Part shown: positions 45,701-52,495 of the stretch, one piece after another | Position numbering within the stretch: position 1 is the first letter of the stretch | How the letters are laid out: each line of letters opens with the position of its first letter | Assembly: GCA_963727625.1 (NCBI GenBank) | Contig: CAVSHR010000009.1 | Coordinates: 1-64,000, forward strand | Source of the DNA: an uncultured delta proteobacterium | GTDB lineage: Bacteria; Desulfobacterota; Binatia; UBA9968 | DNA: 64,000 nucleotides | Reading direction: 5' to 3' | Position numbers and translations under genes: made by a program | Notes under the pieces: model-generated | Seen by the model: the letters and a program-made list of their open reading frames with translations, nothing else | What the model was told of the DNA's origin: nothing | Databases searched by the model: none

Positions 45701-45970
45701 CTATACTTCGCTCAGCCACTCTTCATGCACATCAACCCAGATTGAATCTTGATCACCGCAGTTCGACACTTCGCTGAGATCAAAACGGACGGTATAGAGC
45801 GGTTTATGGATGCCGCGGTGATCCCTAACATTTTCAAGAATACCGTGGACTAAACCGATGACGCCGCGTTTGCCGCGAATATAATGCGGAGTGCGCGGGT
45901 TGCCGGCGGGATTTTCCGCGGCGACCAGGACGGCATCGCCTATCTTGTACTTACTGGAGCTGAATTCCAT
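45701..45970 (-). CDS. Nitrile hydratase beta C-terminal SH3-like / thiocyanate hydrolase alpha-like subunit
   Basis: YKIGDAV.V, PRTPHYIRGKRGVI, PLYTVRF, IWVDVHEEWL. Confidence 0.82.
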   Translation of the reverse strand: MEFSSSKYKIGDAVLVAAENPAGNPRTPHYIRGKRGVIGLVHGILENVRDHRGIHKPLYTVRFDLSEVSNCGDQDSIWVDVHEEWLSEV

Positions 45971-45979
45971 CGTTCTCTC

Positions 45980-47053
45980 TCAGTCCGGGCGAACTCTCGG
46001 CGCTTCCGGCGTCGCTCCGGCTCTTTCGGCCGCTTGCTGTTGGGCCGGTTCCAGCGCGTAGCCCGCGCCGATTAAGCTGTCGACCGTGACGAGCTTGGCC
46101 AATTCTTCTTCGGCCATTCCCTCGATCCCGGCGGGCCGCTGCGGCAAAACGAAATAACGAACATCGGAGGTGCTGTCCCAGACTCGGACCTCTTTACGCT
46201 CCGGAACTTTCAACCCGAACATATCCTGGACGCATTGGCGCGGGTTCTGGACGATATTGGTCCGGTAGCTTTCGTGCTTGTACCACCAGGGGGTGTCGCC
46301 GAGGATATCGTAGGGGTAGCAGGAGCACAGCGTACAGACGATCACGTTATGCACCGCGTCGGTGTTCTCGACGACGACCAGCTTACCGACTTTCCCCTGG
46401 TGCACACCCATTTCTCGAAGCGCTTCCCTGCCCGTCGTTAGGAGCGCCTCTTTAAAAGCCGGGTCCGTCCATGCCTTGGCCACAATCACGCCGCCGGCCC
46501 ATGGACGTTCTTCATGGAGCTGCCTCCAGCGCTGTTCCAACTCCGCTCGAGTTGCCCAGCCGCGCAGGATCAGCGCCTGAACGAAAACCTCGAGCAGCTC
46601 GGAATAGTCTTTCAGGTCCTGCTGCACACTCGCCATGCGCTCCTCAAGTTCACCTTGGTGTTCTTTCTTTTTGATCTTGAAAAAGTCGTCGTAGTCGCCG
46701 CGCTCCTTGCGGTTGTCCTCGGTCACCATGTCCATGCCTTCGACGGCGCGCGCCGAGACCAGAGCGATGCCCTTGACGTATTCATCGAGCCATTCCTCTA
46801 AGTAACGCACCCGGGCCTCGATGTTTTTTCCCTGCGGTTTGGCGATCTTGAAAAAATGGTCCTTCTTTTTGAGCGTCTCGCGAACTTTGAGCAGGTCATA
46901 AAACGTTACCACCCCGCGCCGCAGCAAGTATATAATCCTCGGCTCGAAGCGCTTGGCGCGATAATACTCCAGATCTTCTTCGACCGCTTTGATATGCGCG
47001 AGGTAGTCGTGCATATGACCTTCGAACGGCTTGTGTCCATGCTTTCCCGACAT
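45980..47053 (-). CDS. Nitrile hydratase alpha / thiocyanate hydrolase gamma-like subunit with long N-terminal extension
   Basis: VAKAWTDPAFK, VENT..VHNVIVCTLCSCYP (Co-type), PWWYK..YR, VRVWDST, VLPQRP.G.EG; RBS GGAGG. Confidence 0.88.
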   Translation of the reverse strand: MSGKHGHKPFEGHMHDYLAHIKAVEEDLEYYRAKRFEPRIIYLLRRGVVTFYDLLKVRETLKKKDHFFKIAKPQGKNIEARVRYLEEWLDEYVKGIALVSARAVEGMDMVTEDNRKERGDYDDFFKIKKKEHQGELEERMASVQQDLKDYSELLEVFVQALILRGWATRAELEQRWRQLHEERPWAGGVIVAKAWTDPAFKEALLTTGREALREMGVHQGKVGKLVVVENTDAVHNVIVCTLCSCYPYDILGDTPWWYKHESYRTNIVQNPRQCVQDMFGLKVPERKEVRVWDSTSDVRYFVLPQRPAGIEGMAEEELAKLVTVDSLIGAGYALEPAQQQAAERAGATPEAPRVRPD

Positions 47054-49797: not shown

Positions 49798-50445
49798 ATG
49801 GAAGCATCAAAATTTAAGTTCCTGCTTGTCGGCGCCGTGGTCATCGCTATAGGGGTCGCTCTCGGCACGGCGCTATGGCTCAAGCTTGGACCCCATAACC
49901 AATTCAGTCGAGGTCTGCTCGAAGGCGGCGACGGCATGAAGGATTATGGTGCGGTTCCGGACTTCTCCTTGACGGAAAGAAACGGCAGTACCATAAATCT
50001 AACCCAGCTCCACGGCAAAATCTGGGTTGCAGACTTTATTTATACGAGCTGCACCGACACCTGTCCGCTGCAAACGGCGATGATGGCCAAGCTCCAAGAG
50101 AAATACGCAGACAAGCCGAATGTCCAACTGGTCTCGTTCAGTGTCGATCCCGAACGTGACACGCCCCAAGCGCTTACTGTCTACGCCGAGAAATACCAGT
50201 CCGATCCCAAACGCTGGTTTTTCTTGACCGGGCAGCGCAATCGAATTATTAGCCTGGTCCAGGAAGGTTTTCATTTGGCCGTGGCCGCGATCCCCGATGA
50301 TAAGGACCCGAGCGGCACGATTCCGCATAGCTCGCGCTTTGTGCTGGTGGACAAAAGCGGCCGAATTCGCGGGTATTACGACAGCCGCGAGCTGGAAGCG
50401 TTCGTGCGCCTTAAGAATGACATCGATACTTTGGTGAAAGGGTAA
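49798..50445 (+). CDS. SCO1/SenC family copper chaperone
   Basis: N-terminal TM, FIYTSCTDTCP (CxxxC), SVDPERDTP, HSSRFVLVD. Confidence 0.93.
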   Translation: MEASKFKFLLVGAVVIAIGVALGTALWLKLGPHNQFSRGLLEGGDGMKDYGAVPDFSLTERNGSTINLTQLHGKIWVADFIYTSCTDTCPLQTAMMAKLQEKYADKPNVQLVSFSVDPERDTPQALTVYAEKYQSDPKRWFFLTGQRNRIISLVQEGFHLAVAAIPDDKDPSGTIPHSSRFVLVDKSGRIRGYYDSRELEAFVRLKNDIDTLVKG

Positions 50446-50450
50446 CAAAG

Positions 50451-51323
50451 ATGGCCAACGACAGAAACAAAAGAGCCAGGCAACCGACCACCAACTCGCT
50501 TGCGCGCCAGGGCCCCAACTGGCCATTGTTTGTTCTCGCCTTGATCGGCATGGGCTTGTCCGGCTATCTCACCTTTTCCGCGTGGCAGGGAAGTCAAGTT
50601 GCTTTCTGTACCGAAGGCGCCGGTTGTGATGTCGTGCTCAATAGCCGCTGGTCAACCCTCCTAGGCATGCCGACTGCGTTCTGGGGTTTCCTTACCTATG
50701 CGCTCCTCGCCGCTGTCGCCTGGAACAAGAATGCCGCGGATCAATGGCGCTGGGCTTGGGTGATTTCTTTATTCGGGCTGCTCTACAGCCTCTATTTGAC
50801 TTCGATCTCTTTCTTCGAGTTGCAAGCTGCTTGTCCCTATTGCCTGACCTCGCTTGCTTTGATGACGGCGATTTTTATTTTGCTGACTTTCCAGAAGCCG
50901 AGCAGTCTTGCGAAATTTTCCTGGGGGCCATGGTTGGCCAAAACGGTCGGAACCGCCGCTGTCGCCATCGTATTACTTCATACATATTATGCCGGCTTTT
51001 GGGGCAATGCTCCCGGACCGGAGGATCCTTGGATTCGCGGCTTGGCCGAACATCTGTCGAAAAGCGACGCTAAATTTTACGGCGCCTCCTGGTGCCCGCA
51101 TTGCAAAGACCAGAAAGAGATGTTCGGCAGTTCGGTTGAACGCATTCCCTATGTGGAGTGCAGCCCCGGCGGACCCCAAGCGCCCCAAGCGCAGGTGTGT
51201 AAAGATAAAAATATTGAGAGTTACCCCACTTGGATCATTAACGGACAGCGCTATACCGGCGTCCAACCGTTGGATACCCTCGCCCAGTTGACCCAGTTCC
51301 AGTATCAAGGAGACAAACCATGA
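50451..51323 (+). CDS. VKOR family protein fused to thioredoxin-like domain
   Basis: FCTEGAGCDVVLNS, CPYC, then YGASWCPHC, YVEC, YPTW. Confidence 0.93.
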   Translation: MANDRNKRARQPTTNSLARQGPNWPLFVLALIGMGLSGYLTFSAWQGSQVAFCTEGAGCDVVLNSRWSTLLGMPTAFWGFLTYALLAAVAWNKNAADQWRWAWVISLFGLLYSLYLTSISFFELQAACPYCLTSLALMTAIFILLTFQKPSSLAKFSWGPWLAKTVGTAAVAIVLLHTYYAGFWGNAPGPEDPWIRGLAEHLSKSDAKFYGASWCPHCKDQKEMFGSSVERIPYVECSPGGPQAPQAQVCKDKNIESYPTWIINGQRYTGVQPLDTLAQLTQFQYQGDKP

Positions 51324-51790
51324 GAGGGTGCGATTGGCAATATAAGATAACCTTGAATCTGGCCGCCGTTGCGCTGGTTATGGCCTTCTGGCCCGCGGTC
51401 GCGCCGGCCGACCCGTCAAAATATCCGGAATTCGCCCAACAGACGGTTCCTCCGGATGTCAAACTTGTCTTTATTAGCATCGAGGAACTCGTCAAGGAAT
51501 TGAAAGGTAGAATCCGACCGGTGATCATCGACGTCCGTTCAACGGAGGAATTCCGCGAGGTGCACATTCTGGGCGCGGTTTCCGCGCCGCTGGCGGAATT
51601 CAAAGATTACATCAAAAGCATCCCGCGTGATCGGCCGGTCGTGCTTTATTGAGCATGCCCTCATCACCTGGCCAGTCTGGCCTATGGCATTCTCTACGAA
51701 GACGGCTACCGCAACATGAAAGTGCTCAACGAAGGAATCGTCGGTTGGTACCAGAAGCGCTACCCCATGGAAGGAACTAAGGCTCCCTGA
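51320..51790 (+). CDS. Exported rhodanese-domain protein, predicted selenoprotein (Sec at TGA 51650-51652)
   Basis: IIDVRS..EF...HILGAVS.P...RPVVLY-TGA-ACPHHLA...GYRNMKVLNEGIVGW..KRYP; domain complete only with readthrough; 156 aa. Confidence 0.85.
51653..51690 (+). promoter_or_regulatory. Putative bacterial SECIS element
   Basis: Lower stem ATGCC (51655-59)/GGCAT (51686-90), upper stem GGCCA-GTC-TGGCC (51670-82) directly 3' of the UGA. Confidence 0.6.
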
Positions 51791-51799
51791 CCACAAGAC

Positions 51800-52495
51800 A
51801 TGGCTCGCAAGAACGCGGTGATCCTTCTTAGCGGCGGCATCGACTCCGCTACCGCCGCCGCAATCGCTAAACAGGTCGGTTTTGACCTGCACGCGCTAAG
51901 CTTTTCTTACGGCCAGCGCCACGAGCGCGAGATCGTGTACGCCGGCAAAGTCGCGGCGTTCTTGCAGGCCAAAACCCACCGGGTGATCCGCTTCGATCTA
52001 AGAGCAATCGGCGGTTCCGCACTCACCGATCAGATCGAAGTACCGAAAGGACGAAGCGAGACGGAGATTTCAACCGGCATACCGGTCACCTACGTGCCGG
52101 CGCGCAACACGATCTTCCTCTCCTTCGCGCTCGCCCTCGCCGAGCGCATCGAAGCGCAGGATATTTTTTTCGGCGCCAATCAACTCGATTACAGCGGCTA
52201 TCCCGATTGCCGCGAGGCCTATATCCGCGCCTTTGAAACGATGGCGAACCTCGCCACCAAGGCCGGCATCGAGGGCAAGTCTCGGCTGCACATTCAGACA
52301 CCGTTGCTGCAGATGACTAAAGCGAAAATCATTGCCACCGGCCTGAAGCTCGGCCTCGACTATGGATTGACCTGGAGCTGTTACGACCCGGTGCACGATG
52401 GGCGCGCCTGCGGCCGCTGCGATAGCTGCCAGCTCAGGCTTAAAGGATTCAAAGAGGCAGGAAGCGTCGATCCGATCGCCTACGCCGACCATTAG
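51800..52495 (+). CDS. queC: 7-cyano-7-deazaguanine synthase
   Basis: LSGGIDS, YGQRH, TYVPARN, YPDCR, TWSCY...CGRCDSC. Confidence 0.96.
   Translation: MARKNAVILLSGGIDSATAAAIAKQVGFDLHALSFSYGQRHEREIVYAGKVAAFLQAKTHRVIRFDLRAIGGSALTDQIEVPKGRSETEISTGIPVTYVPARNTIFLSFALALAERIEAQDIFFGANQLDYSGYPDCREAYIRAFETMANLATKAGIEGKSRLHIQTPLLQMTKAKIIATGLKLGLDYGLTWSCYDPVHDGRACGRCDSCQLRLKGFKEAGSVDPIAYADH

Follow-up and report, generated by a model that had tools for sequence, protein, structure and literature searches.

Known selenocysteine rhodaneses and the locus under study

Rhodaneses that carry selenocysteine (Sec, U) in the active-site loop have long been known. In its available text, a 2026 catalogue recognizes five forms, characterized by the motifs UxxS, UxxG (two forms), CxU and UxxxxU (PMC13188914), and the accessible part of a 2022 review agrees with this five-form picture (PMC9312934). 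A UxU variant is reported from Olavius symbionts in the accessible portion of an earlier study (PMC1976440). A UxC rhodanese is not among the forms in the available text of the catalogue (PMC13188914), and the word "rhodanese" is absent from the main text, as available, of the deep-Sep study (PMC12013277). According to the accessible part of its description, BSepDB screened Binatia genomes by aligning the Sec of known families to TGA (PMC13326102). Individual UxC members may therefore be filed there under another rhodanese form. Our literature searches returned no prior description of a UxC rhodanese.

Export of selenoproteins is established as well, since the accessible text on MccSep describes periplasmic selenoproteins with cleaved signal peptides (PMC13510729). 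Outside the selenoproteins, Escherichia coli PspE is an exported single-domain rhodanese that transfers sulfur to dithiols (PMC2593051, available part) and is linked to disulfide formation, being able to partly replace DsbA/DsbB (as cited in the available part of PMC5403849).

We analyzed a stretch of 64,000 nucleotides from an uncultured Binatia bacterium, hereafter the window, which contains a complete rhodanese gene interrupted by an in-frame TGA. Judging from comparative sequence data, this gene almost certainly encodes a real, widespread and mis-annotated selenoprotein, a new motif variant of the long-known Sec-rhodaneses with a suggestive, non-obligatory tie to a VKOR-thioredoxin (VKOR-Trx)/SCO module. 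The gene has the following features (basis in brackets):

51320..51790, + strand: complete gene for a 156-residue Sec-containing single-domain rhodanese, predicted U111 (sequence, Pfam, homologues, model)
51307..51312, + strand: Shine-Dalgarno-like AAGGAG, 7 nt 5′ of the ATG (sequence)
51320..51409, + strand: probable cleavable Sec-pathway signal peptide, residues 1-30, ending in A-P-A before the mature start DPSKYP (heuristic)
51491..51754, + strand: rhodanese domain PF00581, residues 58-145 (Pfam, structure superposition)
51650..51652, + strand: in-frame TGA, predicted Sec111 at the catalytic position (alignment to solved rhodaneses, homologues)
51656..51658, + strand: Cys113, second redox-capable residue of the U-x-C-P-(H/R)-H loop (homologues)

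The initial annotation had noticed that the open reading frame breaks off after ...RPVVLY, where the catalytic Cys of a rhodanese is expected, and that 45 further codons complete the fold and end 9 nt before queC. Both observations hold. The frame continues from the TGA at 51650-52 through 45 codons (ACPHH...GTKAP) to a terminal TGA at 51788-90, queC starts at 51800, 9 nt further on, and in alignments with solved rhodaneses the internal TGA falls on their catalytic Cys. Translated through this codon, the protein matches Pfam Rhodanese PF00581 with 57.6 bits (cut-off 22.2), and its AlphaFold model, computed from a 21-row alignment (A1) with C substituted for U, has a full rhodanese fold (pLDDT 84.6) that fits onto single rhodanese domains (best VIA Z 17.0, rmsd 1.4 Å over 106 residues). 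The active-site loop in the window reads U-A-C-P-H-H-L and contains neither the Cx4R/T nor the Cx5R signature, which the available text of PMC10135228 gives as the loop motifs of characterized sulfurtransferases and Cdc25-type phosphatases; substrate chemistry is therefore not transferable from the characterized enzymes.

Relationship to described families

The LYCAU family (NF041203) shares with the window protein a single rhodanese domain, a signal-peptide-like N-terminus, an in-frame SECIS-like hairpin and two chalcogen residues with a single residue between them where the active-site loop begins. The order of these residues is reversed, however: in the window protein Sec comes first, at the catalytic position, and Cys second, whereas LYCAU is CxU, and the loop continues with P-H/R-H-L-A-S-L instead of x-x-E-x-T-S-A. 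Against the NF041203 model the window protein scores 62.4 bits and two orthologues 47.8 and 56.8 bits, all under the cut-off of 115. The 24 LYCAU members retrieved from 25 loci comprise 22 CxU and 2 UxU proteins, and all 24 begin with signal-peptide-like N-termini as judged by eye. An exported Sec-rhodanese is therefore not itself new, and neither is Sec at this position, both having precedent.

In a tree of 74 rows built from only 108 columns, with both loop positions masked, LYCAU forms one side of a 98/98 branch on which no UxC row falls, and the UxC genes group with C-x-C-P rhodaneses with modest support (81/68). A joint clade of the UxC genes, their Cys forms and LYCAU was not rejected by an AU test after removal of five long branches (p-AU 0.47). 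A first AU test that rejected UxC plus LYCAU (p 0.0036) was discounted because it omitted Cys forms that nest inside the UxC group.

Forms 1, 2 and 4 of the catalogue (UxxS, UxxG) likewise have Sec in place of the catalytic Cys of a PF00581 domain, but the window family has Pro rather than Ser or Gly at position +3 from Sec (77/77 TGA genes) and, on the available text, is set apart from these forms by motif (PMC13188914). The same replacement is found in TsoB (form 5, UxxxxU, NF045694), as far as the accessible text describes it, and, going by its name, TsoB likewise brings a Sec-rhodanese together with a membrane redox protein of the Dsb type; the window protein, on the other hand, scores 20.9 against a cut-off of 805, and has the motif U-x-C-P without a DsbD fusion or UxxxxU. 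PspE resembles it in being an exported single-domain rhodanese and differs in having one Cys and no Sec, the window protein reaching 29 bits against PspE-type cut-offs of 102 and 126. The window protein's nearest relatives in the tree are unnamed C-x-C-P rhodaneses (L157 and P0198 from Rokubacteria, Binatia paralogues, and the fusion protein L294), among which no NCBIfam model exceeded its cut-off for the members tested. L157 has an identical loop peptide with Cys for Sec, and this group differs from the window family in having Cys and no SECIS codon constraint. The window protein would work like a Sec-rhodanese and is a member of none of the listed forms tested. The 2026 catalogue takes a change in Sec position or motif as grounds for a separate subfamily, and on that basis the window protein would rank as the sixth form of Sec-rhodanese.

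Several related genes were encountered in the course of these comparisons. On contig C14 of the source genome (G000), L093:1465-2574 (− strand) encodes a DedA/VTT-rhodanese fusion with the loop LYC-S-TGA-PNEATSA, a CxU, LYCAU-like arrangement that scores 81 bits, below the cut-off, and L289 is a partial second copy of this fusion about 2.4 kb away; the source genome thus carries both CxU and UxC rhodaneses. On contig C2 of the same genome, L094:1471-2664 (+ strand) encodes a fusion of a rhodanese, whose loop reads C-x-x-x-x-TGA, with an Ion_trans_2 channel pore, the two being joined across the TGA. A single loop thus exists in nature as UxC, CxC, CxU and UxU, with two of these versions present in the source genome, which would make it possible to compare the effects of selenium position. 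In the clusters at L081, L090 and L091, Amidohydro_3 genes, solute-binding proteins and a CopD-cytochrome c fusion accompany several signal-peptide-bearing C-x-C-P rhodanese paralogues, which form one 100/100 branch. L294:1492-2586 (− strand), which lies upstream of NADH dehydrogenase-like genes, joins a di-haem cytochrome c to a C-A-C-P-H rhodanese.

Evidence for recoding of the internal TGA

The proposal that the TGA encodes Sec came with a suggestion to search for selA, selB, selC and selD, all of which were found. Contig C5 of this genome carries selA, selB and a Sec-type selD side by side, the last of these also containing an in-frame TGA, and selC, the tRNA-Sec(UCA), lies 50 kb away on the same contig. 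ARAGORN detected 49 tRNAs in the genome, the sole UCA anticodon belonging to tRNA-Sec and tRNA-Trp having CCA, and TGA terminates ordinary genes here, such as the VKOR-Trx gene. These observations speak against a reading of the TGA as Trp or Cys under a variant code.

Conservation of the codon points in the same direction. The 76 best matches (E ≤ 3.2e-20) are distributed over 74 of 121 genomes and contain a TGA in 75 cases; the genomes compared are kin, and these counts are not independent trials. Matches occur in 54 of the 72 genomes of the window's own family (f1) and in 2/5 and 17/28 genomes of two other families of the order (f2 and f3, respectively), with none in the 15 genomes of the class that belong to other orders. 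Three further matches at E ≤ 1e-22 came from 300 other genomes sampled evenly across the phylum: one UxC protein (L293), the cytochrome c-rhodanese CxC fusion (L294) and one whose motif was not recovered by the script. L293 (genome G156) is a distant U-A-C-P-H rhodanese from outside the order, followed by a cytochrome c554-like gene, and its 5′ part appears frameshifted or unusual. We pooled 68 loci from the relatives set (30 best and 38 chosen) with 65 from a scan of the genome collection, giving 82 distinct loci with TGA at the site in 79, TGC in two and GGA in one. All 79 TGA loci have the predicted U-x-C loop, and the alignment of homologues, proposed as a check in the initial annotation, returned TGA or Cys codons in all loci but one. 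The TGC loci are the Rokubacteria orthologue L157 and the paralogue L081. The GGA locus, L057:4713-5183 (− strand), is an intact orthologue still located behind VKOR-Trx in a genome with selA; its loop reads G-N-R, both Sec and the second Cys being lost, which makes it a natural redox-dead form. A metagenome scan with a pattern admitting TGA, TGC and TGT gave at least 120 matches, 111 of them distinct, and among the matches listed all have TGA.

Coding also continues past the TGA. Over 39 residues, identity has a median of 0.85 beyond the TGA and 0.72 ahead of it, Cys113 is invariant in 77/77 TGA genes, and 76 of the 77 genes whose 3′ ends are complete reach their terminal stop 42-49 codons beyond the internal TGA. 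The terminal stop itself varies (TAA 29, TGA 27, TAG 21).

We also considered that the TGA might be a true stop, leaving a truncated 110-residue protein or pseudogene, or might be read as Trp or Cys under a variant code. Database homologues seem to favor a stop, as 118 of the 120 listed (681 in total) terminate at ..LY, including GenBank proteins named from Ca. Binatia; HME61764.1 and MGH7875604.1 are examples of GenBank records that end there. This is also the truncation by standard annotation that had been anticipated for a selenoprotein. One database record has W at the site, and the hairpin discussed below is weak on its own. As for the Sec machinery of relatives, selA is above cut-off in 108 of the 121 relatives-set genomes, including 66 of the 73 with a TGA-bearing orthologue, and was not found in the other seven. 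Two of these are G010 (60% complete) and G062 (66% complete); among the remaining five, tRNA-Sec is present in three and selD in two, one genome having both. In G027, which is 92% complete and contains the rhodanese gene, selA, selD and tRNA-Sec were not found. A true stop is nevertheless difficult to reconcile with 45 downstream codons that are better conserved than those upstream and that end in varying stops, and with the fact that all 190 loci having a stop at the site have TGA (79 plus at least 111, the two sets partly overlapping), TAA or TAG never occurring in the 82 loci where either could appear. With TGA ending ordinary genes and the tRNA complement described above, we regard a true stop or variant code as extremely improbable, and recoding of the TGA at 51650-52 as selenocysteine, as judged from these comparisons, as very close to certain. 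SelB bound to a small stem-loop, with the loop G 22 nt downstream, would then allow UGA to be read as Sec, yielding the 156-residue precursor.

The family, with the signature LY-U-x-C-P-H/R-H plus a signal peptide, is found in Ca. Binatia and in Entotheonella- and Rokubacteria-like sequences. Titles of related records are mostly Ca. Binatia, with single named hits from Ca. Entotheonella (TGA) and Ca. Rokubacteria (TGC), both of whose genomes contain selA. These data add to the conserved selenoproteins a subfamily whose members are cut short by annotation at the active site, and which spans one abundant order of bacteria as well as two or more further phyla. A profile search of cluster representatives returned mostly multi-domain generic rhodaneses and five useful single-stretch hits. 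One candidate, P0046, was rejected as a Cys homologue, as cluster members sharing its N-terminal part end at ..LY or have Leu at the site; it is still one row of alignment A1. A search of the genome for a Sec formate dehydrogenase motif, using a pattern of our own, gave no match.

A constrained stem-loop downstream of the TGA

The sequence following the TGA folds into a hairpin with two parts:

51670..51682, + strand: conserved SECIS upper stem-loop of 5 bp; the loop is G-U-N, or G-G-U in some f3 genes, with its G at 51675
51651..51694, + strand: full two-stem fold including a weaker lower stem (folding, homologues)

The initial annotation had described a two-stem hairpin with a G-led apical loop just after the UGA. 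Such a hairpin is indeed the minimum-energy fold (−15.4 kcal/mol), with the loop G 22 nt after the UGA, and conforms to the bSECIS model given in the available text of the 2026 catalogue (3-9 nt loop N1-G-[G/U]-N-N2, stem of at least 4 bp, spacing of 16-37 nt, MFE ≤ −7.5; PMC13188914), having a 5-bp stem, the loop G-U-C and a spacing of 22. Among homologues the second loop base is only U or G, and pairing is kept in 98.9% of cells of the upper stem and 84% of those of the lower stem. Conservation thus extends to the G-led upper stem-loop and only poorly to the lower stem, and the functional SECIS, as far as alignments indicate, is the small upper stem-loop.

Neither folding energy nor covariation supported the significance of the hairpin. 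Its energy as a single sequence is within chance (z = −1.57; 13 of 200 shuffles fold equally well). Among the TGA-ended ATG ORFs of the genome (n = 4394, spurious ones included), 440 are followed by a hairpin passing our SECIS rule, which is insensitive and missed both CxU sites of this genome, and 1294 by at least 45 further in-frame codons. The case for recoding is therefore carried by comparative data. Covariation is not above that of shuffled alignments (70/500), with one compensatory change in the upper stem, so that support for the SECIS comes from synonymous constraint. Codons of the upper stem-loop are frozen in the 77 TGA genes with full flanks (Leu CTG/TTG 75/76, Ala GCC 71/71, Ser AGT 69/69, Leu YTG 77/77, Ala GCY 76/77), while four-fold codons beside them vary freely. 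Among the metagenome matches listed, Ser is AGT in 111/111 distinct sequences and all five stem pairs are kept in 110. The Cys orthologue L157 (TGC) uses codons that disrupt the stem to encode an identical loop peptide, while its close TGA relative L172 retains the stem.

Probable export to the periplasm

A signal-peptide-like N-terminus had been noted in the window protein, and a heuristic applied to 130 distinct homologues supports probable export. The residue at −1 to the conserved mature start is A, G or S in 127 of them, and a hydrophobic 9-mer scoring at least 2.0 precedes the mature start in 122. A Tat-like motif occurs in 0/130, and a Cys at or near the cleavage site in 1/130. From these sequence properties we consider it probable that the signal peptide is cleaved after Ala30 and that the mature rhodanese works in the periplasm; an uncleaved membrane anchor may be an alternative to a cleavable type I signal peptide.

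Gene neighborhood and proposed function

Three neighboring genes were compared across relatives (Pfam, synteny):

49798..50445, + strand: SCO1/SenC copper chaperone with intact CxxxC (C85/C89), conserved upstream neighbor
50451..51323, + strand: VKOR-thioredoxin fusion, conserved upstream neighbor
51800..52495, + strand: queC, downstream neighbor in family f1 only, probably unrelated

VKOR-Trx lies directly upstream of the rhodanese in 62 of 67 orthologous loci and SCO is upstream in 60, four of the SCO misses having short upstream flanks. The rhodanese ATG at 51320 overlaps the VKOR-Trx stop codon (ATGA), which suggests translational coupling. By contrast, queC is downstream in 41 of the 67 loci, all from f1, and absent in 17/17 f3 and 2/2 f2 loci; going by synteny, the informative neighbors are VKOR-Trx and SCO, queC appearing incidental. 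A scan of 90 of the 155 candidate upstream ORFs from 15 loci revealed, in several loci, Cox11-like, CopD, TlpA-like, DUF4382, DUF255 or ABC-3 (metal-type) transporter genes further upstream. The window VKOR-Trx has eight cysteines (C53, C59, C128/C131, WCPHC at 215-218, C237 and C250). Since DsbB was not found in this genome, VKOR-Trx is likely its disulfide generator; elsewhere the genome has one CcdA/DsbD-type gene and one Cox11-like gene. Long open frames had raised the possibility of a rhodanese fused to VKOR-Trx, which found no support: the upstream frames inspected looked non-coding before the signal peptide, and VKOR-Trx is a separate gene.

Each gene also occurs without the other, so the link between them is not obligatory. 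In f3, VKOR-Trx is present in 27/28 genomes and the rhodanese in 17/28. None of 19 VKOR loci from genomes without an orthologue has an intact rhodanese downstream, and two of them have short C-terminal rhodanese remnants. Conversely, three f1 rhodanese loci are unlinked to VKOR-Trx, and in genomes G079 and G081 the rhodanese is next to SCO with no VKOR-Trx match. Among the metagenome matches listed, 44 of the 54 loci with at least 800 nt of upstream sequence have VKOR or its thioredoxin domain, and the ten VKOR-less loci are mostly Entotheonella-like.

We infer from loop and neighborhood, with nearly an even chance of being right, that the protein is a periplasmic Sec/Cys redox sulfurtransferase operating by a selenenyl-sulfide cycle in an envelope thiol and copper maturation module. 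Sec111 would be the nucleophile and would take up either an oxidant or sulfane sulfur, the latter coming from thiosulfate, polysulfide or protein persulfides. It would then either hand the sulfur on as a classic rhodanese, or be resolved by Cys113; the Sec-Cys selenenyl-sulfide so formed would undergo exchange with the thiol-disulfide system of the envelope. The Sec/Cys mechanism is suggested by the invariance of Cys113 and by L057, in which the orthologue without Sec is also without that Cys, with PspE as precedent. The frequent VKOR-Trx and SCO neighbors, together with Cox11, CopD, TlpA-like and DUF255 genes further upstream, point to the envelope module. The rhodanese may thus be an accessory, not essential, enzyme for redox reactions and sulfur handling in an operon for envelope maturation (Cox11-like, SCO, VKOR-Trx), which would maintain cysteines in copper and disulfide proteins of the periplasm. 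Its location downstream of VKOR-Trx and SCO makes the role of periplasmic rhodaneses accessible to testing.

The same neighborhood could be explained if the selenoprotein's U-x-C-P-H-H were mainly a Cu(I) or soft-metal site and the protein buffered or chaperoned metal in the periplasm together with SCO and Cox11. Besides the frequency of SCO upstream, SCO is directly adjacent in L070 and L071, both without VKOR, Cox11 and CopD are close by in some loci, His116 is invariant in alignment A1, and C-x-C paralogues cluster with CopD-cytochrome c fusions. A small secreted Met/His-rich protein, a possible copper-binding protein with a weak Pfam match only (BiPBP_C), lies directly after VKOR-Trx in the empty rhodanese slot of L334:2997-3443 (− strand) and L336, which would also fit a metal-related position. 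His115, however, is replaced by Arg in 19/79 TGA genes, general rhodanese motifs are intact, and no Pfam copper genes are present at the Entotheonella and Rokubacteria loci examined. Copper-binding rhodaneses are not known to form an established class, and we consider a metal buffer unlikely.

It is also conceivable, if rather doubtful, that the selenoprotein is a stand-alone periplasmic sulfurtransferase or a peroxide or polysulfide scavenger whose SCO-VKOR-queC position is inherited and functionally meaningless. Loss of the rhodanese where SCO-VKOR remains would fit this, as would its solitary occurrence in Entotheonella-like and Rokubacteria loci and in three f1 loci; queC illustrates that unrelated genes stay linked in this run, and the synteny comes from one bacterial order. 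Yet the upstream link persists in f1 and f3 at about 40-47% rhodanese identity while downstream neighbors have wholly changed, and the start codon of the rhodanese overlaps the VKOR stop in the window.

A bolder extension of the Sec/Cys redox sulfurtransferase, which we hold to be quite improbable, would make the protein the soluble half of a hitherto undescribed relay in the periplasm. Its Sec-Cys selenenyl-sulfide would accept sulfide or strip persulfides from copper chaperones and pass the sulfur on as a rhodanese, VKOR-Trx re-oxidizing it and delivering the electrons to quinone. If so, the assembly of heme-copper oxidase would be protected by an SQR-like branch of the disulfide-bond pathway that depends on selenium, and one rhodanese loop would be in use with Sec in three arrangements (UxC, CxU and UxU).

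Elsewhere in the window, positions 45701-47053 (− strand) encode a nitrile hydratase-like pair, in which an alpha-chain ORF of unusual length (357 aa, with the Pfam match at residues 154-329) is accompanied by a short ORF for the beta C-terminus.
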